DNA of 64,000 nt from Dehalococcoidia bacterium (GTDB lineage Bacteria; Chloroflexota; Dehalococcoidia; Plut-88900), in NCBI GenBank assembly GCA_965207225.1, contig CBDBLV010000005.1, forward strand, positions 1,952,001 through 2,016,000, read 5' to 3'. The translations under genes and the position numbers were made by a program. Numbering within the stretch: the stretch's first letter is position 1; each line of letters opens with the position of its first letter. Below, in pieces: positions 1-54,419 of the stretch. The notes beneath the pieces are model-generated. The model had not been told where the DNA came from. It made no database searches and saw only the letters and a list, made by a program, of their open reading frames with translations.

Positions 1-147
1 CGGGCAAATGGTGCGCCGAACCGTCCGTTCACGGCGGGAAAGCGCGTCCAAGGGGTGCCAAGCTAGTCTTCTAGCCATACTATATGTCTAACAAGGGCTT
101 CAAACGACCTTACAATAGCCTTCTTGGATTGATCTGGAGGCAAGAGA

Positions 148-1056
148 ATGTCTGACCAAGAGGAACGTGAAATCACTGCCGCTGATTTGCCCATGACTCT
201 TTACTTAAATCAACGGATGACATTCGATCTCCTTGCCACCCTTGAGGGAGGTTTCTCTAACTTTGCAACTGTTCAGACAACATCCTCTGGGGAAACAACA
301 ACAGAGTTGTCTGGAGGAGCGCAGCTCGGCGTCAGCAATGTCTTTGCCTTCCTCGGTATGCAATTGGGCGGCCATGGTTCCCGACAGGCAGGGCAGAAGC
401 TAAGCGAGAGCACTACAGAAAACATTGTTCACACGCCTGTCTCTCTTTTCGCCCGGCTCAGGAAAGAATTGCAGGACCGTGACTTGGTTCGCAGTATGTC
501 GACCTCATTCAATCTTGACGAGTTGCGCCCCAGTGACTTTGTGGAATTTGAAGCGACCCTTCGGCGACATCAATTGATAGTGCAACTTTCGGCGTTCGCT
601 GAACTAATCCCATTGATGGGTGCCTTCGAAGAGTCATCAGGCTCGAAGAGTCCGCGTCAACGCAGGCAAGATAAGAGCACGGCATCGCAGACTCTTAAGC
701 AAGTCAACTCGTTGTTGAGCGCATTAACAAGCGGTGAGTCGCGGGACCTCGTGTCTAGGATTGGTGAAACCAATGTAGTCATCACTACTGAACAGCAGTA
801 CTTCAATGATCCCACGATGAACGACATCATCGATGGAACCTTCCATGTATTCGGTAAGGCTACTCGTGTCATTCCAAGGGGCGATGATGCAACCATAAGC
901 CTTCTCAGAAAGGCCCCACTAGGGCAGTTCAAAGCCATTCTGCCAGCTATTGCTGAAGCAACGAGTCAGCTTGAGAGTCTGGGTCCTTCAGGGGATACAA
1001 CCACTGAGATTAAAGGTCCGGCAATCCAAGTCATGCCTATTGCCATTTTCTCCTGA
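148..1056 (+). CDS. Hypothetical protein, DUF6414-like; cargo of A1
   Basis: 302-aa ORF, GGAGG RBS, N-terminal YLN..MTFDLLA.LEGG pattern; lower GC than backbone. Confidence 0.55.
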   Translation: MSDQEEREITAADLPMTLYLNQRMTFDLLATLEGGFSNFATVQTTSSGETTTELSGGAQLGVSNVFAFLGMQLGGHGSRQAGQKLSESTTENIVHTPVSLFARLRKELQDRDLVRSMSTSFNLDELRPSDFVEFEATLRRHQLIVQLSAFAELIPLMGAFEESSGSKSPRQRRQDKSTASQTLKQVNSLLSALTSGESRDLVSRIGETNVVITTEQQYFNDPTMNDIIDGTFHVFGKATRVIPRGDDATISLLRKAPLGQFKAILPAIAEATSQLESLGPSGDTTTEIKGPAIQVMPIAIFS

Positions 1057-1202
1057 ACCCTGAAATCCGCTTGCCAATGTCACTTGTTGCGATCAACGTA
1101 ACAATTCGGCCGCCAATTGTTGGGACGACTGATGCTGTCCCATGCACCGGCACTGTCATGCGATGGTTGCCTACCGTGCAGGTTCTTTCCTACGTTAGAT
1201 AC

Positions 1203-2939
1203 ATGGCACTCTCTGACCGACAACTGCTAGACGCCCTGAGCCGGATGCCCTTCGTCGAATCGACGGATCTGGCGCTCATCCTGGGCGAGCCCCACGCCAC
1301 CGTCCACCGCAGGCTGTCCGAGCTGCTGGCCGACGGCCTCGCGGGGAAGGCCACCCACGGCACCGTCCACCTGCCCTCGAGCGGGAGATACTTCATCACC
1401 GCCAACGGCATCCAGGAGGCCGCCGACTTCCTGGGTTTCGACACGCCCTCGGAGTTCGTGCGGGCTTACCCCATGTCCAGGGAGTGGCTCACGCTGCTCA
1501 TACGCCGGATGGACGCCGTGGCCGCCGTCTACCGCCTGGCCGCCGCCATGTCGCCCGGCACGGATTCACATCAGACCCGCGTGGAGTTTCACCGCAAGGG
1601 CCGGTTCGACGCCACCATCACGCTCCACGACGGGCGAGACTTCGGCGTGGTGCGTCAGGGTCTCGGCCTGCGCAGGCGCTCCCTCCACGACCGGCTGCGT
1701 GCCCTAGCCCACTACGACGCCGGCCGCCGCCCGGACATCGTGCTCATCCTGGTTCCTAGTGTCTGGGAGCGGCGGCGGACGGGGAGGTTCTGCGAGGGGG
1801 TGTACCTGACGGACTTCTTCATCGCCGTGGAGTCCCGGTGGGCACTGGAACGGCGGGACCGCCGGGTCTGGCAGGAGACCACGGGGCTGTCCGGGCATTC
1901 GTACCTGACGCTGGAGCGGGTGATCTCCCGGGGCACGCCGGGCAGGAGACGACGACCCCTCACGGCGTCGCCGGAGCGGAAGCGAGCTTCCCTGCCCGAC
2001 CCCGAACGCATGGTGGGGGATTCGCCCGCCTTCGGTATCAGCCCCGCCGAGAAGCGGACGCTGGACCTGATCACCGACCACCCCATGATCCCCCGGGAGC
2101 ACCTGGCGACCTGGCTCGGCGTCTCGGAGGGAAGAATCAGTCAGATGATGCGCAGCCTCGTGAAGACTTGGGGCCTGATCGAACGTCACGGCAAACGGGG
2201 CGAGGTTCGCTACACGCTGTCCGACGAGGGGATACGCTACGTGACCCACCGGGACCGGGCCGAGCTGCCCACCACGCGGGGTATCTGGAGCACGGAGCTG
2301 ACCACGGACAAGGAGGGACGCAGGCGTCACGCGGGACACCGCATCGAGACGTGGGAGCGGCAGACGAAGCACGCCGACGGCATCACTTGGTTCCTGTCGA
2401 AGCTTGCGGCCGAGGCCAGGGAGAACCCCGACAGCGATCTGGTGTGGGTTGTGCCCACGGCCAGGTCCGACCGGGCCTACAACTGGGGCCGCTCCGCCAT
2501 CGCCCCCGACGCCGTGGGGCAGCTGGTCGCCGGGGGCCATCCCGTGCCCTTCTACCTTGAGCACGAGCTCAGAGTCCGCCACCCCAGGGGAGTCATGGCA
2601 CGCCTAAGTCCCTACGAGGACTACTACTGGTCGAACGAGCACAAAGAAGACCAGCCGCCGTACCCGGTCACGCTGTTCGTCGTGGACACCGAGGAGGTGG
2701 AGGAGACCTACGTGAGCACCGCAGGCCGGATGCACCGGATGTCGCTGCCCGTCCTGGTATCCTGCATCCCTGTGCTTAGCACCACGGGGATACTGGGGGA
2801 GTCCTGGCGCCCCCTGTGGGCGCCGTCCTCCCCCCGGCTGAGGCTGTCCCAGCTGCGTGATTACGTGTACGACCCGCTGTACCACCGGATGCGTCCCACC
2901 CGTCCTGTAGAGGCGTCCAATAGGAGGGGACATAGATAG
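1203..2939 (+). CDS. Replication-relaxation (Replic_Relax/MOBC-like) protein with duplicated wHTH modules
   Basis: Two wHTH-like segments; C-terminal PD...FYLEHEL...RL..Y PD-(D/E)xK-type motif; start taken at ATG 1203 by alignment with the copy at 27284. Confidence 0.7.
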   Translation: MALSDRQLLDALSRMPFVESTDLALILGEPHATVHRRLSELLADGLAGKATHGTVHLPSSGRYFITANGIQEAADFLGFDTPSEFVRAYPMSREWLTLLIRRMDAVAAVYRLAAAMSPGTDSHQTRVEFHRKGRFDATITLHDGRDFGVVRQGLGLRRRSLHDRLRALAHYDAGRRPDIVLILVPSVWERRRTGRFCEGVYLTDFFIAVESRWALERRDRRVWQETTGLSGHSYLTLERVISRGTPGRRRRPLTASPERKRASLPDPERMVGDSPAFGISPAEKRTLDLITDHPMIPREHLATWLGVSEGRISQMMRSLVKTWGLIERHGKRGEVRYTLSDEGIRYVTHRDRAELPTTRGIWSTELTTDKEGRRRHAGHRIETWERQTKHADGITWFLSKLAAEARENPDSDLVWVVPTARSDRAYNWGRSAIAPDAVGQLVAGGHPVPFYLEHELRVRHPRGVMARLSPYEDYYWSNEHKEDQPPYPVTLFVVDTEEVEETYVSTAGRMHRMSLPVLVSCIPVLSTTGILGESWRPLWAPSSPRLRLSQLRDYVYDPLYHRMRPTRPVEASNRRGHR

Positions 2940-3028
2940 CGTCGATGCAACGCTATCCGCCCTCCCTGCGGTCTGGGAGCCGCAAAACGGTGCAAGTTGT
3001 ACCTCCGGCAGGGTCTCGAAATACGCCA

Positions 3029-3440
3029 GACCGGTCATATTCCTCTGTTTCAGCTACGAAAGGGGCTGCACAGACCTCGACCGGTCAACGGCCAAATGTA
3101 CAAGTTGGGGAGAAGCTGTGCTAAAGTTGGGGAGCTCGCCGAAGACGCCAAAGTTGCACTTTTACCACCCTGACCGGTCAGCATTTTGAACGGGATGTAG
3201 GTAGGGACGCGGCTGTGAAGCGTCTTTGAGGAGCAAAATCGGCGTATTGGCGGCGTCTGCGGCCCATGCTGGCCCACCGGATATTGCAGGAATTGAGGTG
3301 GGGGTGCATGACGCGAAAAGGGGTGATGGGCAGGAGCGGACATTTCGGGCCAGCCACGTTCGGATTCATGCAACATTTCGGGGTTTGGGCCGAAAATGGT
3401 GACCGGTCGCTGTCAAGGACCGGTTCCACCGAAAATTGCA
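3029..3440 (+). promoter_or_regulatory. Conserved non-coding cis region (candidate oriT/ori)
   Basis: Four GACCGGTC palindromes (3029, 3079, 3172, 3401) and TTGAGGTGGGGGTGCATGACGCG at 3293-3315; motifs recur in the other elements. Confidence 0.55.
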
Positions 3441-3469
3441 GAAGCGGCCCACCCCGATAGAAGGCGAAT

Positions 3470-3907
3470 ATGACATCTCGGAAGCTGACGGAGAGATCGA
3501 GGGCCGGAGACGGCAAGCCCGACCAGAAGTGGGTCGTGGAGTACCTCGTACAGCGGGAGGGTCAGCGCAGGACGGCGGCCCTCCTGGGGGTGAACCGGAA
3601 GACGGTGGCGCTGGCGCTGGGCCGTGAGCGGCTGACGGGGAGGATGGCCCTGGCCGTGCAGCGGTTCATGGCCGGCCTGGACGATCCCGACGGGGAACTG
3701 GCGACGCCCCTGGACAGGCTGGAGGCGAGGATGCGGCGTGTGATCAAGGCCGTGGATGATCTCAGGGAGCGCGTGGATGACCTGACGGAGCGCGTGGAGG
3801 CCCTAGAGGCGGTGCAGCAGGAGCCCGATACCGAGGGCCGGGGGCTGGGCCTGTTCGACTGGTGGCGGCGGCGCAGGCCGCAGGGTGAGAACGAGAGACA
3901 TGGCTGA
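3470..3907 (+). CDS. HTH + coiled-coil protein
   Basis: GQRRTAALLGVNRKTV HTH-like segment then heptad repeat; identical copy at 31798, homologue at 62839-63696. Confidence 0.65.
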   Translation: MTSRKLTERSRAGDGKPDQKWVVEYLVQREGQRRTAALLGVNRKTVALALGRERLTGRMALAVQRFMAGLDDPDGELATPLDRLEARMRRVIKAVDDLRERVDDLTERVEALEAVQQEPDTEGRGLGLFDWWRRRRPQGENERHG

Positions 3908-4334
3908 GCGGGTGCGCTGGATTACGAAGGCGGAGGCGGCGCGGGAGATGGAGGTCTCCATTTCGACGCTGGACCGGATGATACGGCGTGGAGAGGTCGA
4001 GGTGCGCAGGGAGGGCCGGAGGGTCTACGTGGAGATGGAGGGGCCGGAGCGGGTGAGCGACGAGGAGCTGCTGCGTCGGGCTATTGGGCGGGAGGACAGG
4101 CTTCAACGGAGGCTGGTGAAGCTGGACCAACGGGCGCAGGCGTTGGAGCGGGAGCGGGACGAGGCCGTGTACGCCGCATCCGCCGACCGGCAGGCGCTAG
4201 AGGAGGTGGAGGAGGCGTATCAGAAGGAGCGGGCCGCCCGGAGAAGGATGAGGCGGTTGGCCGTCAGGCTTGGGTTGGCCGTGGTCGTGTTGCTAGCCGT
4301 CGTGGGCCTGCTCGTGTGGCGGCTGGTGGCATAG
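3900..4334 (+). CDS. Excisionase-like (MerR-type HTH) protein with coiled coil and C-terminal transmembrane helix
   Basis: ITKAEAAREMEVSISTLDRMIRRGEV motif; hydrophobic C-terminus LGLAVVVLLAVVGLLVW. Confidence 0.7.
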   Translation: MAERVRWITKAEAAREMEVSISTLDRMIRRGEVEVRREGRRVYVEMEGPERVSDEELLRRAIGREDRLQRRLVKLDQRAQALERERDEAVYAASADRQALEEVEEAYQKERAARRRMRRLAVRLGLAVVVLLAVVGLLVWRLVA

Positions 4335-4344
4335 GGTATAGCGC

Positions 4345-7023
4345 ATGGCCGGAGATGACATCGGACACCAGATACGCATCGCCGCCGAGAGCACTAGGCT
4401 CTACCGCCTATTCGCTGTTGGACCGACGCGTGTGTCGCTGACCGACGAAACGCTCACCTTCGAGGGACGCCTGGGTGGAGCATCCGACGAGGTGCCCGTC
4501 GGAGCCATCGACTCAATCACGGTCTCACCATCGTTGTTGTGGCATCGGCTGACCATACAGTTGGGAGATGGGACCGAGCGGTCAGTTGGAGGACTTGACG
4601 AGAGCAGAGCTGCACGGGTCCGGGACGCGGTGTTGGCGAGCACCGTCGAGGTCGCCAAGGCTTTGAGCCCTGAATTGAAGTGGCTCGATGAGCAGGTTCG
4701 ACAACACTTCGCCGCCGACCGCTACGCCCGATACAGCGACTGCCGGAAGCTTCACGAGTCTCTAGCGCCGGTTCTACGGCAATGCAAGGCACTCACCCGT
4801 GGACGCCTGAACCAAGAAGCGTCAGAGACGGCGGAGCGGCTTTCGCCCCTAGAATCGGTTGCGGGGTTCGAGGCGGCAAGAAGGCGTGCGAACAGCCTGT
4901 TCATTTCCAACGCCAAGCCCTCCGTACAGCAAGCCGCATCCGAGACGCTGGGTAACCCTCTCACGGATGAACAGGCCGAAGCCGTCGCCACCGACGAGGA
5001 CGCGACCCTTGTGCTGGCGGGCGCGGGAACGGGCAAGACCGCGGTCATCGTCGGCAAGGTCGCCCATGTCGTTCACAATTTGGGTGTTCGCCCGAACGAG
5101 GTGCTGGTCCTGGCATTCAACCGCAAGGCGGCCGATGAGATACGGGGACGGCTCAAGGGCGACCTCTCCGCAGCGCACGTCCACACCTTCCACAGCTTCG
5201 GTCGCCGCGTCATAGCCGAGTCCGAGTCCGCTCCCACCATATCGAAGCTGGCCGAGGACGAACTGGCGCTGAGGCGCGCAGTTGACAACATCATCGGCGA
5301 GCTACTCAACGACCTGGAGCAGTCGAGGGCTGTGATCGACTTCATCGTCTACCACCACGCGCCCTACAGATCGGCCTTCGAGTTCGACACCCTTGACCAG
5401 TACGAGGAGTACGTCCGCGAAGTCGATTTGCGGACCCTGAGCGGGGATCTGGTCAAGAGTTTCGAGGAACTGTCCATCGCGAACTACCTGACGGAACACG
5501 GCGTCGAGTTCCGGTACGAAGACCTGTACGAGACAGCGACGGCGACGAACCAACACAGGCAGTACCAGCCGGATTTCTTCCTGCCCGGCCACGACATCTA
5601 CATCGAGCACTTCGCACTCAACGAACATGGACGCCCTCCCCCCGGCTGGAGAGGGTACGTGGAGGGCGTCGAGTGGAAGAGGAACATCCACCGTCAACAC
5701 GGCTCGACGCTGGTGGAGACCTACAGCTGGCAACACCGGCGGGGCATCCTGCTTGAGACGCTGCGCAAGCGCCTCGAAGAGGCAGGGGTTAGCTTCGAGC
5801 AGGTACCTCGCCAAACCCTGGTGCGGCAACTCGGCCAGGAGCAGACGTCGTCGCTGGCGGGGCTGCTGGCGACCTTCCTGAATCACGTAAAGACCGGCGG
5901 CCTCTCGCCCGAGACGCTTCGCGCCCGCGCTCGCGAGAGCGGGGGCCGTTGGCGCAATGAGAGCTTCCTTGCCGTTTTCGAGCAGGTGCGCAACCGCTAC
6001 CAGAAGCTGCTCTCGGACCAAGGGGAGCTGGACTTCCACGACCTCATCAACGTCGCCGCAGGGCATATCCGTGAGGGCCGATGGAAGTCTCAGTATCGTT
6101 ACGTTCTGGTGGATGAGTTCCAGGACATATCCGCAGGTAGGAAGGCGTTCATACACGCCCTCCGGGACCAGGACGTGGCCTACTTCCTGGTGGGCGACGA
6201 CTGGCAGTCGATCTACAGGTTCGCGGGGAGCGACGTCGGTCTCCTGCGCGACTGCGGAGACCTGCTCGGCCACGTGGAGGAGCGAACGCTGAGCCTGACC
6301 TTCCGGTTCGCCGACGGCATACTCGGCCCCTCGACCGAGTTTGTGAAGCGGAACCCGGAGCAGACCCAGAGACCCTTGCTGTCCGCCAGCGGAGCGGAGG
6401 ACGAGGGCGTCACCATCGTCGCCGACGCCAGTCCCGCTGGCGGCGTTGCTCGGGCGTTGCAGGACATCGAGGCAAGGGCGCAGGGTGAGCCTCGCAGCGT
6501 CCTTGCGCTGGGGCGCTACCGGCAGGGCCGCGAGGTGGTCCAGTCGATTCGGCGGAGCAGGTCGCTACGAGTGGAGTTCAGCACGGTTCATGGAGCGAAG
6601 GGCCGCGAGGCCGACTACGTGATCCTGCTCGACCTCAACGACGGTCGTTATGGGTTCCCTTCGAAGGTGGAGGACGATCCGCTGCTGGAGCTCGTGCTGC
6701 CCCCGGTCTCGGGGGGAGCTTATCCATTTGCGGAGGAGCGGCGGCTCTTCTACGTGGCGATGACCCGGGCGCGGAACGGCGCATACCTGGTGACCGACCC
6801 TGTGCGGCCATCCCAGTTTGTGACGGAACTGTTAAGGGAATCCGACGACCTGCGGCAGATCGGCGAACTCGCGACGAAGTGTCCGCGTTGCGGCAGGGGC
6901 GTGCTCCAGGTGATCAATGGCAGGCGCGGCCGCTTCTGGGGCTGCACTGGGTACCGGTCCACGCCGCCATGCCGATACACCAAGGACATTGAGGGAGAAA
7001 CCGCCCATAGAGGGCGGGAATAG
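4345..7023 (+). CDS. UvrD/helicase IV-like SF1 helicase with internal PD-(D/E)xK-like insert and C-terminal topoisomerase-type Zn ribbon
   Basis: AGAGTGKT, VDEFQD, GDDWQSIY.F, STVHGAKGRE, EERRLFYVAMTRA; insert KS.EE..IAN...PDF...IEHF; CPRC...GC...C. Confidence 0.9.
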   Translation: MAGDDIGHQIRIAAESTRLYRLFAVGPTRVSLTDETLTFEGRLGGASDEVPVGAIDSITVSPSLLWHRLTIQLGDGTERSVGGLDESRAARVRDAVLASTVEVAKALSPELKWLDEQVRQHFAADRYARYSDCRKLHESLAPVLRQCKALTRGRLNQEASETAERLSPLESVAGFEAARRRANSLFISNAKPSVQQAASETLGNPLTDEQAEAVATDEDATLVLAGAGTGKTAVIVGKVAHVVHNLGVRPNEVLVLAFNRKAADEIRGRLKGDLSAAHVHTFHSFGRRVIAESESAPTISKLAEDELALRRAVDNIIGELLNDLEQSRAVIDFIVYHHAPYRSAFEFDTLDQYEEYVREVDLRTLSGDLVKSFEELSIANYLTEHGVEFRYEDLYETATATNQHRQYQPDFFLPGHDIYIEHFALNEHGRPPPGWRGYVEGVEWKRNIHRQHGSTLVETYSWQHRRGILLETLRKRLEEAGVSFEQVPRQTLVRQLGQEQTSSLAGLLATFLNHVKTGGLSPETLRARARESGGRWRNESFLAVFEQVRNRYQKLLSDQGELDFHDLINVAAGHIREGRWKSQYRYVLVDEFQDISAGRKAFIHALRDQDVAYFLVGDDWQSIYRFAGSDVGLLRDCGDLLGHVEERTLSLTFRFADGILGPSTEFVKRNPEQTQRPLLSASGAEDEGVTIVADASPAGGVARALQDIEARAQGEPRSVLALGRYRQGREVVQSIRRSRSLRVEFSTVHGAKGREADYVILLDLNDGRYGFPSKVEDDPLLELVLPPVSGGAYPFAEERRLFYVAMTRARNGAYLVTDPVRPSQFVTELLRESDDLRQIGELATKCPRCGRGVLQVINGRRGRFWGCTGYRSTPPCRYTKDIEGETAHRGRE

Positions 7024-7202
7024 CGGGGCTGAGAGAAGCCGCCGCCTGACACTTCGACTCTCCCTCGTCGTCCTGAATGACGGATTTACAGGCTCTCAAC
7101 CGCTGCCAGGGTTGTCGTGAATCGGTTGCGTCAAGGTATCCTATGGCCTACAATGGGGATGGAATGCAACTTCCCCCACACGGGGGTCTACGGAGGGTTG
7201 AG

Positions 7203-8051
7203 ATGATACGACAGCGATTGGGTCTATTGGCCGTGCTAGCAGCTGTTGCGGTAATGGGGCTGGCTGTAGCCTGCACCGACGATTCGTCCGCCGTCGAGGA
7301 CGCGATGATGGAAGAGTTGAGCGCCATTAGCGCAACGACGGACCAGCTATCCCAATCGTTGGCACAGGCGCAGTCTGCGGCTGCTGATTCTGACGGAGGC
7401 ATACTGGTGACCGGGGAAGGCCGTCTCAGCGTGGAGCCGGACCTGGCGGTGCTCAACATTGGTATTGAGGCGCAGTCAGAGACGGTCTCTCAGGCGAGAA
7501 CCGATGCGGCTCAGGCAAAGTCGAGGGTTGTGGCAGCCGTCAAGACGCGGGGCCTGTCCGACAAAGACATTCAGACCACGTCGTTCAACATTAGACCGGA
7601 GTACCGGTACGAGGAGATCGAACGAGACGGCAGCTACGTGAGTGAGCGGAAGCTCGTCGGCTATGTCGTCAGCAACTTTGCAATGATCAAGATACGCGAC
7701 CTGGACGCCGTCGGTCCGATCATCGACGATGTGGCGGAGGCCGGGGGAGACCTTGCCAGGATCAACGGAATCAGCTTCACCGTGGAGGACCCGAAGCCCT
7801 TCATGGAGGAACTCCGGAGGGAGGCATTCGAGGAGGCGAAAGCCAAGGCGGAGCAGCTTGCGGGCCTAGCAGGCGTGACGCTTGGCCATGCCCTGTCGAT
7901 AAGCGAGTCCGCCGCGGCGGACGGCTTGCCTGGCTCCGATCTTGATTTCCTGCGCCAGATAGCTGCCTACGACTACGAGAGCAGCCCCATCAGCGGTGGG
8001 GAGACGGAGCTTCGTCTGACGGTCAGAGTACGGTTTGCCCTGGAGCCGTAG
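7203..8051 (+). CDS. SIMPL domain (DUF541) lipoprotein
   Basis: Lipobox LAVAC; VTGEG...EPDLA, A..KAEQLA...G..LG....ISE pattern. Confidence 0.85.
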   Translation: MIRQRLGLLAVLAAVAVMGLAVACTDDSSAVEDAMMEELSAISATTDQLSQSLAQAQSAAADSDGGILVTGEGRLSVEPDLAVLNIGIEAQSETVSQARTDAAQAKSRVVAAVKTRGLSDKDIQTTSFNIRPEYRYEEIERDGSYVSERKLVGYVVSNFAMIKIRDLDAVGPIIDDVAEAGGDLARINGISFTVEDPKPFMEELRREAFEEAKAKAEQLAGLAGVTLGHALSISESAAADGLPGSDLDFLRQIAAYDYESSPISGGETELRLTVRVRFALEP

Positions 8052-8390
8052 ATGAACGCAATGGAAGCAAGGACGGCGGCAATGACAAGGACGAAGACCA
8101 AGCGATGGGACCCGTCGGAGCATCTGGAAACCGCAGAGGAGATGGCAGCCTACCTGAGCGCCGCCTTCGAAGAGGACGACGTGCGGCTGATCCTGGCAAC
8201 GCTGGGGGACATCGCCCGCGTCCGGAGGATGGCGGTGGTGGCGCAGGAGACGGGGCTGGGCAGGGAGAGCCTCTACAAGTCGCTGTCCGCCGACGGCAAC
8301 CCGGAGTTCGTCACCATCTTGAAGGTGATGCGCGCCGTGGGACTCAGACTTCAGGTCGCAGTGGTGCCTGGAGCGAACGACGCCGCCTGA
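8052..8390 (+). CDS. Addiction-module antidote protein (HI1420-like XRE antitoxin), no cognate toxin adjacent
   Basis: WD..EHLET.E.MAAYL..., LGDIAR, TGLGRESLYKSLS.DGNP.F.TI motif. Confidence 0.85.
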   Translation: MNAMEARTAAMTRTKTKRWDPSEHLETAEEMAAYLSAAFEEDDVRLILATLGDIARVRRMAVVAQETGLGRESLYKSLSADGNPEFVTILKVMRAVGLRLQVAVVPGANDAA

Positions 8391-8449
8391 GAGCGTCGCA
8401 GTGACGGACGACACGACTGAGGGAACAGACGATTCCAGAGGAGGACGAC

Positions 8450-29201: not shown

Positions 29202-30005
29202 TTAGACGTCGCCGGAGCTAGCGGCTTCAGGCGATGTCGATAGCAGTTGATGGGAGGCGAAGAGTCCGGCCTGCCTCTTGCCTTTAAGCCGGTAGCTCTC
29301 GCCTCGGATGTTGAGGACGTGGCTGTGGTGCAGCAGCCGGTCCAGGATGGCCGAGGCGATGACGGTATCGCCCAGAAGCTCACCCCACTCGGCGAAGCCC
29401 TTGTTGGAGGTGAGGATGATGCTGCCCCGCTCATAGCGAGCCGACACCAGGGTGAAGAAGGCGGTGGAGGCGTCCCGGTCGTAAGGCCAGATGCCGAACT
29501 CGTCCACGATGAGTAGCTTGGGCGACAGGTAGACCCGCATGCGCCGTTGGAGGTTGTTCTCCACCCTGGCCTTCCTCAGGTCCTCCATCAGGTCGTAGGC
29601 TCGGACGAAGTAGGCCCCCTGGCTCTTCTCGATGGCCTTGAGCGCTAGGGCCACCGCCAGATGGGTCTTGCCCACACCTGGCGGTCCCAGGAGCAGCAGG
29701 TTGGTGGCTTCAGCGACGAAGGACAGGCCGGCCAGTTCCCGCACCTGTCGCTCGTCGATGGAGGGCTGGAACGAGAAGTCGAACTGCTCCAAGGTCCGGT
29801 GGAAGGGGAGGTGAGCCAGCTTCGTCCTGGTGGACATGTACCGCTCCTTCCGGGCGGCCACTTCCACGCCGAGTAGCTCTGCCAGCATCTCGGGGTAGGT
29901 CAGTTTCTTGGTGGCCGCAGCGTCCAGGGAGTTGTCCAGGGCTTCGACGGCCTGCTTGAGGCCCAGCGTCTCCAGGTGCTGGCGAGCCTGTTCCAGCGCG
30001 ATCAT
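29202..30005 (-). CDS. istB: IS21 helper ATPase
   Basis: GPPGVGKTHLA, LLIVDEFG, RYE.GSIILTSN, AILDRLLHH, GESYR. Confidence 0.97.
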   Translation of the reverse strand: MIALEQARQHLETLGLKQAVEALDNSLDAAATKKLTYPEMLAELLGVEVAARKERYMSTRTKLAHLPFHRTLEQFDFSFQPSIDERQVRELAGLSFVAEATNLLLLGPPGVGKTHLAVALALKAIEKSQGAYFVRAYDLMEDLRKARVENNLQRRMRVYLSPKLLIVDEFGIWPYDRDASTAFFTLVSARYERGSIILTSNKGFAEWGELLGDTVIASAILDRLLHHSHVLNIRGESYRLKGKRQAGLFASHQLLSTSPEAASSGDV

Positions 30006-31237: not shown

Positions 31238-31359
31238 TTGACTTGCTGCACCTCCTAATCGGTTTCCCGACGAAGATGCGTCCGCTATCGGGGTGGGTCA
31301 ATTCCAAATTAGCGCTACTGGGTCAGTTTAGAGTTAGCACTAACACCTGAAATACCCAA

Positions 31360-31770
31360 GACCGGTCATATTCCCCTAATTCAACTACAAAAGGGGCTGC
31401 AACGTCCTCGACCGGTCAACGGTAAAAAAAGCAAGTTGGGGAGAAGCTGTGATAAAGTTAGGGCGCTCTCCGGAGACGCCGGAATTGCACTTTTACCACC
31501 CTGACCGGTCAGCCGATCATGGGGGATGTAGGTACGGATGCGGGTCTGAAGCGTCTATGAGGAGCAAAACCGTCGCTTCGGCGGCGTCCGCGGCCCATGC
31601 TGGACCACCGGATATTGCAGGAATTGAGGTGGGGGTGCATGACGCGAAATAGGATGGGTAGGAGCGGACATTTCGGGCCACGCAGGTTTGTATTTGTGCA
31701 ACATTTCGGGGGTTTGGCCGAAAATGGTGACCGGTCGCTGTCAAGGACCGGTTCCACCGAAAATTGCAGA
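31360..31770 (+). promoter_or_regulatory. Conserved cis region of A2
   Basis: GACCGGTC at 31360, 31410, 31503, 31729; TTGAGGTGGGGGTGCATGACGCG at 31624-31646. Confidence 0.55.
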
Positions 31771-31797
31771 AGCGGCCCACCCCGATAGAAGGCGAAT

Positions 31798-32235
31798 ATG
31801 ACATCTCGGAAGCTGACGGAGAGATCGAGGGCCGGAGACGGCAAGCCCGACCAGAAGTGGGTCGTGGAGTACCTCGTACAGCGGGAGGGTCAGCGCAGGA
31901 CGGCGGCCCTCCTGGGGGTGAACCGGAAGACGGTGGCGCTGGCGCTGGGCCGTGAGCGGCTGACGGGGAGGATGGCCCTGGCCGTGCAGCGGTTCATGGC
32001 CGGCCTGGACGATCCCGACGGGGAACTGGCGACGCCCCTGGACAGGCTGGAGGCGAGGATGCGGCGTGTGATCAAGGCCGTGGATGATCTCAGGGAGCGC
32101 GTGGATGACCTGACGGAGCGCGTGGAGGCCCTAGAGGCGGTGCAGCAGGAGCCCGATACCGAGGGCCGGGGGCTGGGCCTGTTCGACTGGTGGCGGCGGC
32201 GCAGGCCGCAGGGTGAGAACGAGAGACATGGCTGA
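31798..32235 (+). CDS. HTH + coiled-coil protein, copy 2
   Basis: Translation identical to 3470-3907. Confidence 0.65.
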   Translation: MTSRKLTERSRAGDGKPDQKWVVEYLVQREGQRRTAALLGVNRKTVALALGRERLTGRMALAVQRFMAGLDDPDGELATPLDRLEARMRRVIKAVDDLRERVDDLTERVEALEAVQQEPDTEGRGLGLFDWWRRRRPQGENERHG

Positions 32236-32662
32236 GCGGGTGCGCTGGATTACGAAGGCGGAGGCGGCGCGGGAGATGGAGGTCTCCATTTCGACGCTGG
32301 ACCGGATGATACGGCGTGGAGAGGTCGAGGTGCGCAGGGAGGGCCGGAGGGTCTACGTGGAGATGGAGGGGCCGGAGCGGGTGAGCGACGAGGAGCTGCT
32401 GCGTCGGGCTATTGGGCGGGAGGACAGGCTTCAACGGAGGCTGGTGAAGCTGGACCAACGGGCGCAGGCGTTGGAGCGGGAGCGGGACGAGGCCGTGTAC
32501 GCCGCATCCGCCGACCGGCAGGCGCTAGAGGAGGTGGAGGAGGCGTATCAGAAGGAGCGGGCCGCCCGGAGAAGGATGAGGCGGTTGGCCGTCAGGCTTG
32601 GGTTGGCCGTGGTCGTGTTGCTAGCCGTCGTGGGCCTGCTCGTGTGGCGGCTGGTGGCATAG
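32228..32662 (+). CDS. Excisionase-like HTH/coiled-coil/TM protein, copy 2
   Basis: Translation identical to 3900-4334. Confidence 0.7.
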   Translation: MAERVRWITKAEAAREMEVSISTLDRMIRRGEVEVRREGRRVYVEMEGPERVSDEELLRRAIGREDRLQRRLVKLDQRAQALERERDEAVYAASADRQALEEVEEAYQKERAARRRMRRLAVRLGLAVVVLLAVVGLLVWRLVA

Positions 32663-32672
32663 GGTATAGCGC

Positions 32673-35351
32673 ATGGCCGGAGATGACATCGGACACCAGA
32701 TACGCATCGCCGCCGAGAGCACTAGGCTCTACCGCCTATTCGCTGTTGGACCGACGCGTGTGTCGCTGACCGACGAAACGCTCACCTTCGAGGGACGCCT
32801 GGGTGGAGCATCCGACGAGGTGCCCGTCGGAGCCATCGACTCAATCACGGTCTCACCATCGTTGTTGTGGCATCGGCTGACCATACAGTTGGGAGATGGG
32901 ACCGAGCGGTCAGTTGGAGGACTTGACGAGAGCAGAGCTGCACGGGTCCGGGACGCGGTGTTGGCGAGCACCGTCGAGGTCGCCAAGGCTTTGAGCCCTG
33001 AATTGAAGTGGCTCGATGAGCAGGTTCGACAACACTTCGCCGCCGACCGCTACGCCCGATACAGCGACTGCCGGAAGCTTCACGAGTCTCTAGCGCCGGT
33101 TCTACGGCAATGCAAGGCACTCACCCGTGGACGCCTGAACCAAGAAGCGTCAGAGACGGCGGAGCGGCTTTCGCCCCTAGAATCGGTTGCGGGGTTCGAG
33201 GCGGCAAGAAGGCGTGCGAACAGCCTGTTCATTTCCAACGCCAAGCCCTCCGTACAGCAAGCCGCATCCGAGACGCTGGGTAACCCTCTCACGGATGAAC
33301 AGGCCGAAGCCGTCGCCACCGACGAGGACGCGACCCTTGTGCTGGCGGGCGCGGGAACGGGCAAGACCGCGGTCATCGTCGGCAAGGTCGCCCATGTCGT
33401 TCACAATTTGGGTGTTCGCCCGAACGAGGTGCTGGTCCTGGCATTCAACCGCAAGGCGGCCGATGAGATACGGGGACGGCTCAAGGGCGACCTCTCCGCA
33501 GCGCACGTCCACACCTTCCACAGCTTCGGTCGCCGCGTCATAGCCGAGTCCGAGTCCGCTCCCACCATATCGAAGCTGGCCGAGGACGAACTGGCGCTGA
33601 GGCGCGCAGTTGACAACATCATCGGCGAGCTACTCAACGACCTGGAGCAGTCGAGGGCTGTGATCGACTTCATCGTCTACCACCACGCGCCCTACAGATC
33701 GGCCTTCGAGTTCGACACCCTTGACCAGTACGAGGAGTACGTCCGCGAAGTCGATTTGCGGACCCTGAGCGGGGATCTGGTCAAGAGTTTCGAGGAACTG
33801 TCCATCGCGAACTACCTGACGGAACACGGCGTCGAGTTCCGGTACGAAGACCTGTACGAGACAGCGACGGCGACGAACCAACACAGGCAGTACCAGCCGG
33901 ATTTCTTCCTGCCCGGCCACGACATCTACATCGAGCACTTCGCACTCAACGAACATGGACGCCCTCCCCCCGGCTGGAGAGGGTACGTGGAGGGCGTCGA
34001 GTGGAAGAGGAACATCCACCGTCAACACGGCTCGACGCTGGTGGAGACCTACAGCTGGCAACACCGGCGGGGCATCCTGCTTGAGACGCTGCGCAAGCGC
34101 CTCGAAGAGGCAGGGGTTAGCTTCGAGCAGGTACCTCGCCAAACCCTGGTGCGGCAACTCGGCCAGGAGCAGACGTCGTCGCTGGCGGGGCTGCTGGCGA
34201 CCTTCCTGAATCACGCCAAGAGCGGCGGCCTCTCGTCCGAGACGCTTCGCAGCCGAGCCCGTGAGAGAGGAGACCGCCGGCGCAACGGTAGCTTCCTTGC
34301 CGTTTTCGAGCAGGTGCGCGACCGCTACCAGAAGCTGCTCTCGGACCAAGGGGAGCTGGACTTCCACGACCTCATCAACGTCGCCGCAGGGCATATCCGT
34401 GAGGGCCGATGGAAGTCTCAGTATCGTTACGTTCTGGTGGATGAGTTCCAGGACATATCCGCAGGTAGGATGGCGCTCATACACGCCCTCCGGGGCCAGG
34501 ACGTAGCCTACTTCCTGGTGGGAGACGACTGGCAGTCGATCTACAGGTTCGCGGGGAGCGACGTCGGTCTCCTGCGGGATTGCGGCGACCTGCTCGGCCA
34601 CGTGGAGGAGCGGACGCTGAGCCGGACCTTCCGGTTCGCCGACGGCATACTCGGCCCCTCGACCGAGTTTGTGAAGCGGAACCCGGAGCAGACCCAGAGA
34701 CCCTTGCTGTCCGCCAGCGGAGCGGAGGACGAGGGCGTCACCATCGTCGCCGACGCCAGTCCCGCTGGCGGCGTTGCTCGGGCGTTGCAGGACATCGAGG
34801 CAAGGGCGCAGGGTGAGCCTCGCAGCGTCCTTGCGCTGGGGCGCTACCGGCAGGGCCGCGAGGTGGTCCAGTCGATTCGGCGGAGCAGGTCGCTACGAGT
34901 GGAGTTCAGCACGGTTCATGGAGCGAAGGGCCGCGAGGCCGACTACGTGATCCTGCTCGACCTCAACGACGGTCGTTATGGGTTCCCTTCGAAGGTGGAG
35001 GACGATCCGCTGCTGGAGCTCGTGCTGCCCCCGGTCTCGGGGGGAGCTTATCCATTTGCGGAGGAGAGGCGTCTCTTCTACGTGGCGATGACCCGGGCGC
35101 GGAACGGCGCATACCTGGTGACCGACCCTGTGCGGCCATCCCAGTTTGTGACGGAACTGTTAAGGGAATCCGACGACCTGCGGCAGATCGGCGAACTCGC
35201 GACGAAGTGTCCGCGTTGCGGCAGGGGCGTGCTCCAGGTGATCAATGGCAGGCGCGGCCGCTTCTGGGGCTGCACTGGGTACCGGTCCACGCCGCCATGC
35301 CGATACACCAAGGACATTGAGGGAGAAACCGCCCATAGAGGGCGGGAATAG
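32673..35351 (+). CDS. UvrD/helicase IV-like helicase, copy 2
   Basis: Same as 4345-7023 apart from a cluster of substitutions around residues 515-650. Confidence 0.9.
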   Translation: MAGDDIGHQIRIAAESTRLYRLFAVGPTRVSLTDETLTFEGRLGGASDEVPVGAIDSITVSPSLLWHRLTIQLGDGTERSVGGLDESRAARVRDAVLASTVEVAKALSPELKWLDEQVRQHFAADRYARYSDCRKLHESLAPVLRQCKALTRGRLNQEASETAERLSPLESVAGFEAARRRANSLFISNAKPSVQQAASETLGNPLTDEQAEAVATDEDATLVLAGAGTGKTAVIVGKVAHVVHNLGVRPNEVLVLAFNRKAADEIRGRLKGDLSAAHVHTFHSFGRRVIAESESAPTISKLAEDELALRRAVDNIIGELLNDLEQSRAVIDFIVYHHAPYRSAFEFDTLDQYEEYVREVDLRTLSGDLVKSFEELSIANYLTEHGVEFRYEDLYETATATNQHRQYQPDFFLPGHDIYIEHFALNEHGRPPPGWRGYVEGVEWKRNIHRQHGSTLVETYSWQHRRGILLETLRKRLEEAGVSFEQVPRQTLVRQLGQEQTSSLAGLLATFLNHAKSGGLSSETLRSRARERGDRRRNGSFLAVFEQVRDRYQKLLSDQGELDFHDLINVAAGHIREGRWKSQYRYVLVDEFQDISAGRMALIHALRGQDVAYFLVGDDWQSIYRFAGSDVGLLRDCGDLLGHVEERTLSRTFRFADGILGPSTEFVKRNPEQTQRPLLSASGAEDEGVTIVADASPAGGVARALQDIEARAQGEPRSVLALGRYRQGREVVQSIRRSRSLRVEFSTVHGAKGREADYVILLDLNDGRYGFPSKVEDDPLLELVLPPVSGGAYPFAEERRLFYVAMTRARNGAYLVTDPVRPSQFVTELLRESDDLRQIGELATKCPRCGRGVLQVINGRRGRFWGCTGYRSTPPCRYTKDIEGETAHRGRE

Positions 35352-35533
35352 CCGGGAAGAGGAACCCGCCTTCTTCCGACACTTTGGACTCTCCTTTAGC
35401 GTCCTGCCCGCACGATTTGCAGGCCCTCTAGCGATGCCGTAGTGTCGGATGTCCCTTGCGCCCTAGGTATCCTATGGCCTACAATTGGGGAGGTGGGCAA
35501 ACTCCACCAAACCGATGACCACGGGGGGTTGAG

Positions 35534-36373
35534 ATGATAAGAAGGCGTTTGAGCCTATTGGCCCTATTCGCGATAGTCACCGCGATGCTGGCTGTAGCCT
35601 GCACTGACGATTCGTCCGACTTCGAGGAAGCGGTGATGCAAGAGTTGACCGTCATTAGCGCGACGACGGACCAGCTATCCCAATCGTCGGAACAGGCGCA
35701 GTCTGCGTCTGCTGATGGGGGCATCCTGGTGACCGGCGAGGGACACCTCAGCGTGGAGCCGGACTTGGCGATGGTGTACATCGGCATCGAGGCTCAGTCA
35801 GAGACGGTCTCTCAGGCCAGGACCGATGCTGCTGAGGCAATGTCGAGGGTTGCGGCAGCCGTCAGGGCGCGGGGCCTGTCTGACGCGGACATTCAGACCG
35901 TATCGTTCGATATCAGGCCGGAGTACCGGTACGAGGAGATCGAACAGGATGGCAGCTATGTGGCGAGGCGGAAGTTCGTCGGCTACGTCGTCAGCAACTT
36001 TGCCTCAATCAAGGTGCGCGACCTGGACGCCGTCGGACCCGTCATCGACGATGTGGCGGAGGCCGGAGGCGATCTCGCCAGAATCGATGGGGTCAGTTTC
36101 ACGGTGGAGGACCCGAACCCCTTCATGGAGGAACTCAGAAGGGAGGCTTTTGAGGAGGCGAAGGCCAAGGCCGAGCAGCTTGCGGACTTGGCTGGCGTCA
36201 GACTGGGGCAGGCCCAGTCCATTAGCGAGTCAGTCGCATCGGACGGACTGACTGGCACCACTTTTGGATTGCGCGAATTCACATTCGTAGACTCTGAAAG
36301 CTTCACCCCCATCAGCGGCGGGGAGACGGAGCTTCGTCTGACGGTCATAGCCCAGTTTGACATAGAGCCGTAG
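35534..36373 (+). CDS. SIMPL domain (DUF541) lipoprotein, divergent allele
   Basis: Lipobox LAVAC; homologous to 7203-8051 with many substitutions. Confidence 0.85.
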   Translation: MIRRRLSLLALFAIVTAMLAVACTDDSSDFEEAVMQELTVISATTDQLSQSSEQAQSASADGGILVTGEGHLSVEPDLAMVYIGIEAQSETVSQARTDAAEAMSRVAAAVRARGLSDADIQTVSFDIRPEYRYEEIEQDGSYVARRKFVGYVVSNFASIKVRDLDAVGPVIDDVAEAGGDLARIDGVSFTVEDPNPFMEELRREAFEEAKAKAEQLADLAGVRLGQAQSISESVASDGLTGTTFGLREFTFVDSESFTPISGGETELRLTVIAQFDIEP

Positions 36374-36712
36374 ATGGACGTGGCAGACGCAAGGACGGCG
36401 GCAATGGCAAGGACGACGACCAAGCAATGGGATCCGGCGAAGCATCTGGAAACCGCAGAGGAGATGGCAGCCTACCTGAGCGCCGCCTTCGAAGAGGACG
36501 ACGTGCGGTTGATCCTGGCAACGCTGGGGGACATCGCCCGCGTCCGGAGGATGGCGGTGGTGGCGCAGGAGACGGGGCTGGGCAGGGAGAGCCTCTACAA
36601 GTCGCTGTCCGCCGACGGCAACCCGGAGTTCGTCACCATCTTGAAGGTGATGCGCGCCGTGGGACTCAGACTTCAGGTCGCAGTGGTGCCTGGAGCGAAC
36701 GACGCCGCCTGA
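36374..36712 (+). CDS. HI1420-like antidote protein, copy 2
   Basis: Same as 8052-8390 except the N-terminus. Confidence 0.85.
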   Translation: MDVADARTAAMARTTTKQWDPAKHLETAEEMAAYLSAAFEEDDVRLILATLGDIARVRRMAVVAQETGLGRESLYKSLSADGNPEFVTILKVMRAVGLRLQVAVVPGANDAA

Positions 36713-36771
36713 GAGCGTCGCAGTGACGGACGACACGACTGAGGGAACAGACGATTCCAGAGGAGGACGAC

Positions 36772-39700
36772 ATGAAGAAGCAGCACCTACAGCCCCTGAC
36801 GCCGGCGGCCCTCTACGCCAGGGTGTCCAGCGACCGCCAAGACGTGGATCTGTCCGTGGCCGCACAGCTTAGGGCGCTCAAAGAGTACGCCAAGGCCAAC
36901 GGCTACTCCGTGGCCAGGGAGTACGTGGACGAGGCCGAGAGCGGCCGGGTCGCCGACCGGCCCCAGTTCCGGGAGATGATCGCAGAAGGCTCCAAGCCCC
37001 AGGCTCCTTTTGAGGTGATTTTGGTCTGGAAGTTTTCAAGGTTCACCCGCAAGCGGGAGCACGCCGTGGCCTTCAAGGCTCAGCTGCGGCGCAAGGGCAT
37101 CCGCGTGGTGTCCATCACCGAGCAGGCCGAGGACAACGCCACCGGCAGGCTGCTTGAGGGCATCATCGAGAGCGTGGACGAATACTACAGCGAAAATTTG
37201 GCGCAGGAGGTCGTCCGGGGGATGCGGGAGGCGGCTTCGAGAGGCTTCTTCCTGGGCTCCAAGGCCCCCTTCGGCTACCGGAAGATCAAGGTGCAGGACG
37301 GGGCGAAGGAGCGCCCCTCGCTGGAGGTTGACCCTGCCACGGCTCCTGTAGTGAAGGAGATATTCGAGAAGTCTCTGAGCGGCCACGGTCTGAAGGAGCT
37401 GTGCAAGGAACTGAACGACCGGGGCGTCACCAACCGGGGGAAGCGCTGGTACAAGGGCGGTCTCCACTACGTGCTGCGGAACGAGGCGTACACCGGAACA
37501 GCCGTGTGGGGGCTCAAAGGCAAGGGAGAGAAGGCCCAGGACCCGGTGAGGGTTGAGGGAGCGTGGCCCGCGCTGATTTCACGGGAGCTGTTCGAGGAGG
37601 TCCAGCAGGCGATGAGCGAGCGCGCCCCGAAGGTGCAGAGGCCCGCCAGGGTGGGAAGCCCGTATCTGTTGAGCGGGCTGCTGAAGTGTGGGGTGTGCGG
37701 CAGGCTCTACTCGGCCCAGGGAGCCAAGAGCGGCCAGTTCGCCTACTACATCTGCGGGACGCTGTTCCGGGAGGGAGCGGGGACGTGCAGCGCCCGCTAC
37801 CTGAACGCTTCCAGGGTGGAGGAGTTCGTGGTGGAGAAGATCAGGGAGCGCATCCTCACCGAGGAGACCATCGTGGAGCTGGTGCAGCTTGTGGCGGAGG
37901 AGATCGACGCGATGGCCGGTGAGCTTGCAGGGAGGCTGGAGTCTGTGGAGGCGGAGCTGTCCGACGTGCAGAGGCGTCTGGGGAAGCTCTACGAAGCCAT
38001 CGAGACGAGCGACCTGACGCTGGAGGTGCTGTCGCCCCGCATCATGTCCCTGCGGCACCGTGAGGAGCAGTTGGAGGCTGCCAGAGAGGACGCCGAGACC
38101 CAGCTTGAGCAGCGGAGAGTCGATCTGCCCGACACCGAGGAGATCGCGCGGTACGTGGCGGACTTCCGGGAGTTCCTGAAGGAGGGAACGATACCGGAGC
38201 GCAAGGCCCTCATCCGCAACTTCGTTGAGGGCATCGAGGTGGTGGGAGACGAGGCGACGCTGACGTACACGGTGCCCATGCCCAGGGACGGGGTGACCAA
38301 GGAGTCGGCCTCGGTTCTTGATTTCGTCCAGTCCGGCCCAGTGAGTGAGACTGGACGCTGGATGAGAGTTGAATTAGTCGGAGAAGTAATCGCCGGGACC
38401 TTTGAGAGGGGAATCAGCCAATATCCGAACATAGGAGATACGGTTCATCTGGCAGTTGAGGAACACTTGCACCGAATCTACGATATCCGAGGCCAAGGAT
38501 ACGTTGTAATTGGCACTCTCGCCAGTGCCGAAAGCATTTCTGCGAAAGTTGCGCTTGATGAGCTGGTAACACGGCATTCCGCTATTCTCGGCTCAACTGG
38601 TTCCGGCAAGTCCACGACTGTAGCCAGCCTACTACGAGCAATTACGGCATTCGGTCCAGACAGCAACGCATATCCGAACGCCCGGATTCTAATGCTCGAT
38701 ATACATGGGGAATATTCGACTCCTCTCGCCGATGTATCTAAGGTATTCAGCGTTGAACCCCAGCACGGGGAGGAAAAGCTGTTCGTTCCCTACTGGGCAC
38801 TCGACACTGAGGACTTGCTAGACTTTCTGACCGGGAGGCTGGAAGGGAACAGAGAAACGGCATTTACCGACAAGATATTTGAATTGAAATCTGCATCGCA
38901 CTCCGCCCAATTGTTTCCTGGTGTTCAATCCGGCTCAATAACTGTTGACACGCCTTTACCATTCAGTTTGAAGCGACTGTGGCATGAACTTATTGACTTT
39001 GAGATCGCAACATTTGAGGGGAAAGATCGCGACGAGTCTACTCGGCAAGATCCTGGAGACCCTAATACGCTCACACCCCCGAGATATAAACCTCATGCCA
39101 TGGGTGCAACAGGTCCATTCCTAAACCAGCAAGCGTTCGGCATACAACGTCCTCTGAACCTCTTACGTTCCCGACTGCTTGATCGTCGCTATGACTTCTT
39201 GTTGCGCCCCGGGCCGTGGGAACCCGACCTTGATGGTACGGCTGAAAGGGATCTTGATTCACTACTGTCTGACTGGCTTGGAGGTGACAAGCCCATTACT
39301 ATTCTCGATCTGTCTGCAGTGCCTAGCAGCGTGCTTGAGCGTCTGATTGGATCAATTCTGAAGATCATTTATGAGGCTCTGTTTTGGAGTAGAGAGAAGA
39401 CAGAAGGTGGCATTCAGCGTCCTTTGCTTATTGTAATGGAGGAGGCTCATAGGTATCTCTCAGATATATCAGAAGGTACAGCGTCAGATATGGTTCAAAG
39501 GATCGTAAAGGAGGGAAGAAAGTACGGTGTAGGTGCAATGATAGTTAGCCAGCGACCCTCTGAAGTGAACGAGACCATACTTTCGCAATGTGGCACCTTT
39601 TTTGCGCTGCGCCTCTCAAATCCATCTGATCGCGATAGGGTCCGGGGGACACTGCCAGACGGTCTTGTCGGCCTCTTAGATGTGCTACCGATTCTCCGTA

Positions 39701-54413: not shown

Positions 54414-54419
54414 TATCGG

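Follow-up and report, generated by a model that had tools for sequence, protein, structure and literature searches.

Three serine-integrase elements stand end to end at a shared two-base crossover in a broken defence gene of a Dehalococcoidia bacterium

In Dehalococcoides, multiple islands lie in tandem downstream of ssrA, each bounded by a repeat of the tmRNA 3' end (McMurdie et al., 2011, PMC3146451). According to that account, a large serine recombinase (LSR) of about 540 residues, DsiB, is encoded at the island edge, where its gene overlaps attL and takes its stop codon from outside the island; its authors suggested that full function of the integrase may be confined to the circle (PMC3146451). 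Their outline of the Dsi module lists, besides DsiB, the small serine recombinase DsiA, a RecF-like protein, ParB, Mom with an embedded pseudo-tRNA and a large protein with an RNA polymerase domain (PMC3146451). Site-specific accretion of integrative and conjugative elements, integrative and mobilizable elements and cis-mobilizable elements, a subject of the Guedon group, likewise gives tandems of functional elements whose integrases are distantly related but similar in specificity (PMC5704250). As these two sources indicate, site-specific accretion and tandem ssrA islands in this bacterial class are known concepts already in print. Here we describe a stretch of 64,000 nucleotides (nt) from a Dehalococcoidia bacterium (assembly GCA_965207225.1, contig CBDBLV010000005.1, positions 1,952,001 to 2,016,000 of the forward strand), called the window below, to whose numbering all positions refer unless a locus label precedes them. 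We confirm that it carries three self-contained mobile elements, A1, B1 and A2, each with its own serine integrase, which stand end to end at a shared two-base crossover in a broken defence gene (Table 1).

The three elements abut at their CC cores with zero spacer between neighbours, as a preliminary description made from the letters alone had proposed. The 12-nt arm GGTTCTTGATTT occurs at 9991 and 38313 on the plus strand and as its reverse complement at 21027; these three matches compare with 0.15 expected, and none of 100 shuffles reached three. Homology between A1 and A2 also ends at the cores: in a comparison of the window with itself, 3018-10018 corresponds to 31349-38340 at 95% identity and 1212-3015 to 27293-29096 at 92%, with an extra 2.25 kb in A2, and the match stops at the GCCCA of junctions J1 (A1 to B1) and J3 (A2 to herA). 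The two A elements are mosaics, in which 100%-identical blocks at 3518-5767 (2.25 kb) and 8261-9760 (1.5 kb) have segments of 68-97% identity between them. On the right side of the array, homology to herA sets in precisely at nt 38341, which corresponds to residue 77 in the 610-residue homologue P0002; most of the 120 relatives listed are 610 residues long, at 80-83% identity. Since this homology starts at codon 77 and codons 1-76 are absent from the rest of the window, the array interrupts herA or has truncated it. The same 5' part is absent from the related genomic loci surveyed below, which hold no herA homologues. At J3 the A2 integrase and HerA are joined in a single in-frame open reading frame (ORF) of 1057 codons.

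Re-pairing the half-sites as in excision restores two quasi-palindromic attP sites. Over 30 nt, dyad symmetry reaches 20 positions for the left half of J1 with the right half of J2 (the B1 to A2 junction), for the left half of J3 with the right half of J2 and for the left half of J2 with the right half of J1, against 18, 14 and 8 of 30 for the junctions as found. Without B1 the reading frame of the A1 integrase ends after 540 codons, as it does on an A2 circle; a B1 circle gives 545 codons. Thus the earlier proposal that removal of B1 leaves a clean A-type site and gives the A1 integrase its tail is borne out, as is the observation that A and B arms share a frame and differ in the middle: GTTC on the outside, GAC at +10 to +12 and gc-CC-acca are common to both. 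Their description as head-to-tail holds for the polarity of the att sites but not for the integrase genes at J1, where those of A1 and B1 converge tail to tail.

Three of the 64 ORFs of the window have a Resolvase domain, and all three match the Pfam families Resolvase (PF00239), Recombinase (PF07508) and Zn_ribbon_recom (PF13408), which places them among the LSRs; a conserved YARVSSDRQ motif is visible in the LSR alignment, and sequence matches in the PDB cover the catalytic domains only (3guv, 3bvp (TP901-1) and 3g13). The integrases of A1 and A2 are 99% identical, those of A and B 58%. Relatives come from a genome scan, of which 80 loci out of at least 386 confirmed matches are considered here; labels such as L003 and L004 denote these loci. 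In a FastTree phylogeny of 100 LSRs, those of A polarity (80, support 97) and those of B polarity (16, support 87) are sister to each other, and the outgroup consists of four distant LSRs. What had been taken for two integrase families are hence sister clades of one family with a flipped core. The 8-bp core reads GGCCCACC in the A integrase frame (..GPP..) and as the complement GGTGGGCC in the B frame (..GGP..); because the core orientation is opposite in the two frames, the clades are mirror versions of one design.

Beyond the core, the distal ends encode conserved tails. The tail reads PP(D/N)(L/W)xKSRTF.L.F.L.. in all 10 A distal ends, where it closes after 17-21 codons; in all 11 B/C-type distal ends it is ..T.xRT.FE.W.. 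or ..RTFRWEV.., with a length of about 17-19 codons (a twelfth row of the underlying tabulation is the J1 proximal arm and is left out of this count). As attP lies inside the integrase's own 3' end, integration swaps this conserved tail of 17-21 residues, and the conservation of the distal-end tails implies that a complete integrase is encoded only across an intact attP; the tail may also be important for integrase activity. As separate observations, three A-type integrases (L020, L058 and L065; A-type LSR at 10001-11569) contain an in-frame stop, and the B-type integrase of L039 (11575-14820) has an interruption of about 1.7 kb at codon 274.

Read outwards from the core, all half-sites carry (G/T)GAC at +9 to +12. 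The element arms (A proximal, A distal, B proximal and B distal) then have AGAACC or AGTACC at +20 to +25, and the target-type half-sites (tRNA T-loop ends and the T-flanks described below) have CGAACC at +14 to +19. LSR sites are about 50 bp long with a 2-bp crossover, and an outward displacement of the outer motif in attP relative to attB is a known feature of serine integrases, said to go back to work by Rutherford and Van Duyne. The reconstituted sites follow this pattern, being quasi-palindromic with the attP outer motif shifted outwards by 6 bp. On its opposite strand the A proximal arm is a tRNA T-arm look-alike with six extra bases, and as protein it reads WT[KS]RT, compared with WTRT from an antisense tRNA. 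In L014 a B-type LSR fragment adjoins an intact tRNA-Val with the 3' end ..CCGCCCACCA.

The T-flank consists of CC, A, N7 and GGACTCGAAC, a mirrored tRNA T-loop. Of 79 A-type elements, 19-22 have it on their right side, and it is read in 27 of 120 protein tails; examples are L017, L019, L009, L024 and others at about 11567-11590, as well as 38340-38360 of the window, and in many loci it adjoins ordinary metabolic genes. Its sequence fits the grammar of a target-type right half-site. The possibility that it is a real tRNA on the opposite strand was rejected, as ARAGORN and Rfam find no tRNA at these flanks; furthermore, the 5' T-stem strand, read by eye, is not complementary, and the core would need a tRNA starting with CC. 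An intact palindromic target (T-loop, N8, CC, N8, mirrored T-loop) had no strict match in the loci and one loose, irrelevant match. In the window itself no tRNA or tmRNA is found by ARAGORN or by Rfam at gathering score.

All but one of the titles in the genome scan name Dehalococcoidia, Chloroflexota/Chloroflexi or related groups (SAR202, Tepidiformaceae, Spongiisocius), the exception being L033, a contig of 2.8 kb with a Gemmatimonadaceae title; to judge from their isolate names, some loci may derive from sponge samples. To the right of 79 A-type junctions we found an abutting convergent LSR in 25 cases, a T-flank in 19 (with 3 more missed by the pattern), a contig end in 2 and other sequences in 33, 8 of which resemble B-like arms; an A distal arm was found in none. 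Junctions of the J1 type are present in 24 further genome loci, of which 14 belong to records with the title 'chromosome: 1', and J2-type junctions of B distal with A distal arm in L019 and L054; C-type distal arms adjoin A distal arms in L005, L015 and L019. The left neighbours of 10 A distal arms comprise three B distal arms, three C distal arms, two ends in ..CAGCTCCACCA (L004, L020), one tRNA/tmRNA-like T-arm fragment (L061) and one other sequence (L017). These ssrA-like ..CAGCTCCACCA ends occur only left of the A-type elements in L004 and L020, with no tmRNA gene there. When a tmRNA was sought left of the A-type element, nothing was found in L004, and in L061 only T-arm and acceptor matched a tmRNA model, below threshold (E = 0.026; 13.9 bits, where the gathering score is 84). 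Close and even near-identical A integrases have differing neighbours.

The read-through tails of the LSR proteins record what lies beyond each junction. For the 120 closest A-LSR clusters this is an antisense convergent LSR in 33, a B-like distal arm with its tail in 33, a T-flank in 27, the own (A) distal arm in 6, a contig end in 5 and something else in 16; read by eye, the last group includes three antisense LSRs, one B-like distal arm and one A distal arm, which brings the A distal arms to 7. In about two thirds of these 120 A-type clusters the LSR frame continues into the end of a different element. Among the 120 closest B-LSR clusters, 37 tails run into an antisense A-LSR end, about 46 into antisense tRNA T-arms of many kinds, 8 (and 5 more by eye) into an own-type tail, 2 into another B-like LSR and 4 into a contig end, with 23 others. 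Mixed neighbours number about 70 against 7 of the same type, or roughly ten to one. Two working ideas were given up along these lines. That an A-type element never adjoins another A-type element agrees with none of 79 genome junctions, yet the A distal arm follows in frame in 6 (7 by eye) of 120 tails. Flanks with a B-like arm and no integrase, first taken for decayed B elements, carry a B-like distal arm with its tail, and in L003 they lead into an element similar to B2 (the fourth unit of the window, see below) that points the same way as the A element.

Stacking of these elements is hence widespread. The many different neighbours of A-type ends uphold the earlier picture of separate autonomous units that recombine at one core and accumulate in arrays. 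With B-type elements found at tRNAs about as often as at A ends (about 46 and 37 of 120), A and B do not form one fixed unit. Widespread stacking and the use of the A arm by B-type LSRs, for which it is a frequent docking place (37 of 120 tails), also largely support the idea that these att sites serve one another as landing pads, though cross-recognition itself is something we infer.

Some loci show further arrangements. In L004 (12940-13120) and L056 (12860-13040), a distant type of LSR, 25-27% identical, has its end directly at the conserved ILVWKFSRFTRKREHA codons (around residue 82) of a truncated B-like integrase gene; it has the look of an element that targets the integrase genes of the others for insertion. 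Very short scars also occur between cores: in L054 (11564-11653), 87 nt with a T-flank and a B distal arm and tail lie between two A-type elements, and L013 (16825-16928) has two distal-arm scars about 100 nt apart. Arrays can also include other kinds of island, as in L061 (12001-16088), where an A-type element is separated from the next A distal arm by three genes for tyrosine integrases and a tRNA-Ser.

We consider it probable that autonomous integrative elements have formed an accretion array in the window, characterized by a shared CC core, an attP in the integrase end, mirror-image A and B clades and repeated entry beside residents. Each element would consist of a Replic_Relax protein, cargo and one LSR, and would recombine at the shared CC inside GCCCACCA, the sequence of a tRNA/tmRNA 3' end. 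The excised circle would encode the full integrase of 540 or 545 residues, and integration would replace the tail by adjoining sequence. A- and B-type elements would insert in opposite orientation, which would leave their integrase genes tail to tail. For B-type elements tRNA 3' ends would be the normal target and the A arm in the last codons of the A integrase a second one of comparable use; A-type elements in turn would settle behind the distal arms of B- and C-type elements. A1, B1 and A2 would then have been built by repeated entries beside resident elements, in an array sitting within herA. This reading draws on the junctions, the arm symmetry, the tail conservation, the herA break, the neighbour statistics and the phylogeny, as established above; from them we infer the recombination chemistry, the order of arrival and the acceptance of element-derived (P-type) half-sites as partners by the LSRs. 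Several candidate routes all give identical junctions, whether B entered between two adjoining A elements or the array grew at its host-proximal or at its distal end. As each of them needs an element-type half-site in the target, the four such half-sites at J1 and J2 suggest a relaxed choice of partner by the A and B LSRs. Relaxed choice of site pairs is known in the Ccr recombinases. It is also reported for TndX (PMC5704250).

Several points weigh against such an accretion array. With four P-type half-sites at J1 and J2, every route needs recombination of attP with attP or of attP with an attL/attR-like site. To our knowledge, well-studied LSRs do not join pairs of the attP by attP type without a directionality factor, and this analysis identified none. 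Neither a circular form nor an empty site was observed, and the left end of the array lies beyond the window, such that neither a tRNA nor herA codons 1-76 are seen. The T-flank to the right of many A-type elements belongs to no tRNA, and its origin is unexplained. The tail classes rest on our own regular expressions applied to protein tails and not to DNA, with 16 of 120 (A) and 23 of 120 (B) unclassified. Finally, the identical blocks of A1 and A2 could reflect gene conversion or an effect of assembly or polishing; these blocks would not have created the junctions, but could have swapped the pairing of A backbones with junctions.

Alternatively, accretion may have taken place at a host target without any cross-recognition, each newcomer inserting between the host half-site (a tRNA end or, in this window, the 5' part of herA) and the array by means of the intact host half alone, beside a passive resident arm, in the order A2, B1, A1. 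We hold this to be possible, if doubtful. The route is the one described for tandems of integrative elements (PMC5704250) and would yield exactly J1 and J2, and about 46 of the 120 B-type clusters do have a real tRNA gene beside the LSR. However, it still needs a hybrid target of one host half and one foreign element-type half, the left end of the array is unseen, and it predicts same-type tandems to be as common as mixed ones, when mixed neighbours number about 70 and an A integrase is followed by an A distal arm at none of the 79 genome junctions and in 6 of the 120 protein tails (7 by eye). The preliminary description implied yet another route, in which a direct A1-A2 tandem with an intact A-type attP arose first, for example by homologous recombination of an incoming A circle, and B1 then entered that site. 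The site of 20/30 symmetry and the 540-codon integrase restored by removing B1 agree with it, as do the long 100%-identical blocks, which are expected after mutual recombination, and outside the window 6 of 120 tails (7 by eye) show an intact pair of A arms, the contig being 430-596 kb long in three cases. Nevertheless we regard it as unlikely, since it requires recombination of attP with attP, no A-A junction is present among the 79 genome junctions, and stepwise accretion gives the same end state. It is very improbable that A and B are co-inherited halves of one composite two-recombinase element, like ccrA/ccrB in the staphylococcal cassette chromosome (SCC): convergent LSR pairs stand at 25 of 79 junctions, but the other 54 A-type junctions have no abutting LSR, partner arms are of several types, near-identical A integrases have different neighbours, B-type LSRs occur alone at tRNA genes, and the A1/A2 homology stops at the core. 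Chimeric assembly at repeated integrase sequence, for which the identical blocks of 2.25 and 1.5 kb might speak, is hardly credible, as the junction sequences lie outside these blocks, the herA frame resumes to the base at J3, and the recurrence of J1- and J2-type junctions in independent assemblies of other genomes (14 of 24 titled 'chromosome: 1') argues against misassembly.

Within the framework of an accretion array, a more far-reaching reading can be offered tentatively: the coding end of the integrase would act as a decoy tRNA 3' end, such that each insertion would offer the sister clade a new docking site, taken with about the same frequency as real tRNAs, and the tail would be a switch between the circular and integrated states. 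An integrase unable to use its own attL/attR but able to use those of its sister would make arrays grow mainly by mixing types. If true, this would also require the joining of two element-type sites, unlike textbook serine integrases.

How far does this locus depart from the described systems? By its published description, the ssrA islands of Dehalococcoides are the closest known case, sharing with our array the bacterial class, the tandem arrangement and an LSR whose 3' end runs across the att site, and the B-type orientation, with the integrase converging on the tRNA, is that of DsiB (PMC3146451). In contrast, none of DsiA, the RecF-like protein, ParB, Mom or the embedded pseudo-tRNA of the published Dsi module was found in the window with its 64 ORFs. 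Instead of the single-copy ssrA site with its 20-bp repeat in that description, there is 7-8 bp of identity here, the right end of the array lies in herA, and the window has no tmRNA. Target sites here comprise a variety of tRNAs, the ends of integrases and one protein gene, whereas ssrA alone is given for Dsi; mirror-polarity clades and tail-to-tail integrase overlaps are not among the features that PMC3146451, as far as it was available, describes for ssrA islands. Documented accretion mostly concerns tyrosine integrases at the ends of tRNA or protein genes in Firmicutes, as opposed to LSRs in mirror orientation with two thirds of copies stacked (PMC5704250).

Integrons are likewise expandable rows of cargo units built by site-specific recombination, and the array had been called functionally like one. 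This comparison does not hold: there is no platform integrase, attI/attC or common promoter (Pc), no IntI and no Phage_integrase match in the 64 window ORFs, and the units are 11-17 kb long, each with its own LSR. SCC elements, for their part, use ccrA with ccrB, or ccrC, and the 3' end of rlmH/orfX. Here, each unit has one LSR with attP inside the integrase ORF, and the targets are tRNA-like ends, integrase ends and herA. SCC/SCCmec (Ccr) elements are nonetheless comparable as LSR-driven cassettes in tandem at one chromosomal site with short core repeats, as characterized in PMC3146451. Among the entries listed by literature searches on such elements in Dehalococcoidia of marine or sponge origin, none was specific to them. 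In the portions of the literature available to us we found no account of mirror-polarity sister clades with overlapping tail-to-tail integrases, of a tRNA-mimic arm with a 6-bp shift, of so high a stacked share, of the mixed-neighbour bias or of a Replic_Relax backbone, in place of the Dsi module, in marine Dehalococcoidia.

With regard to contents, A and B elements have in common a Replic_Relax gene and variable cargo, and A1 and A2 share in addition a UvrD/GajB-like helicase and a SIMPL protein. The gene for the leucine-rich-repeat (LRR) protein of A2 contains 24/48-nt tandem repeats and 72-nt LRR repeats (21173-21600 and 23143-23436). To the right of the array, the hmaB methylase is encoded in two overlapping frames (40174-40560 and 40502-43072), and the herA break together with the split hmaB makes the Hma-like defence locus look inactivated. 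Further on, outside the range of the preliminary description, a partial fourth unit, B2, begins about 65 nt downstream of an apparently complete gene, of glyoxalase type as judged by eye from its translation. Its segment 63946-63776 matches 12030-12200 in inverted orientation, which is the part of B1 adjoining its integrase. Comparison of L003 (11567-20828) with 51429-60665 reveals a B2-like element with the same cargo spacing, the helix-turn-helix (HTH) protein lying 8 kb from the end; there it follows an A integrase and has its core in CC polarity. Hence, the core orientation seems to flip between close relatives.

Table 1. Elements, junctions and neighbouring features of the window
Feature	Position	Strand	Details
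Element A1, right part	1..10017	+	Left end beyond window; A2 homology stops at 10018; cargo DUF6414, Replic_Relax (1071-2939), small HTH_17 protein, UvrD/GajB-like helicase (4345-7023), SIMPL (7077-8051), LSR
A1 LSR	8450..10114	+	523 element-encoded codons (to 10018); last 32 codons from B1 DNA
Junction J1	9991..10042		A integrase-proximal arm, CC core (10016-17), B integrase-proximal arm
Element B1, 11.0 kb	10018..21013	-	LSR, 218-residue ORF, Replic_Relax (12711-14816), small ORFs, PIN protein (17110-17580), three ORFs without family match
B1 LSR	9667..11601	-	527 element-encoded codons (11601-10021), then 117 codons antisense through A1 integrase end
Junction J2	20960..21068		B distal arm, CC core (21012-13), A distal arm; B tail 20960-21016 (minus strand), A tail 21012-21068 (plus strand), PPDLIKSRTFSLCFKLEV then stop
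Element A2, 17.3 kb	21014..38339	+	LRR protein (21082-23577), Replic_Relax (27191-29020), IS21 insertion, helicase, SIMPL, LSR
A2 type II restriction-modification set			Vsr 24092-24598, restriction endonuclease 24611-25567, C5 methylase 25564-26934
IS21-family insertion, A2 only	29097..31348	-	istB 29202-30005, istA 30002-31237
A2 LSR	36772..38340	+	No stop at junction; ORF in frame through herA to 39945, 1057 codons
Junction J3	38313..38365		A integrase-proximal arm, CC core (38338-39), herA interior from codon 77
herA remnant	38341..39945	+	Codons 77-610 of 610-residue family; first gene of decayed Hma-like defence locus
Hma-like locus			KTSC; hmaB split at about 40500-40560; hmaC 43801-47202
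Junction J4	51424..51483	+	Core GG 51427-28 (plus strand), then inverted B-type distal arm with tail ORF GGPILTVDRTVFELRLGSL then stop
Fourth unit B2, partial	51429..64000	+	Inverted relative to B1; integrase would lie beyond window; PIN/AF2212 pair, a 544-residue and a 1601-residue Calx-beta protein, triple-HTH protein

The array shows how islands are assembled in an abundant, uncultured marine and sponge-associated lineage, in which serine integrases stack units of 11-17 kb that bring together restriction-modification, toxin-antitoxin, helicase and surface-protein genes. The family is also a natural series of close integrases with a readable attP/attB grammar, flipped polarity, many tRNA targets and an apparently relaxed choice of partner, which are properties sought by serine-integrase engineers. 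It also allows a long-standing proposal to be tested directly, namely that of the published account of Dehalococcoides dsiB (PMC3146451), by which an integrase whose gene crosses attP is complete only on the excised circle.

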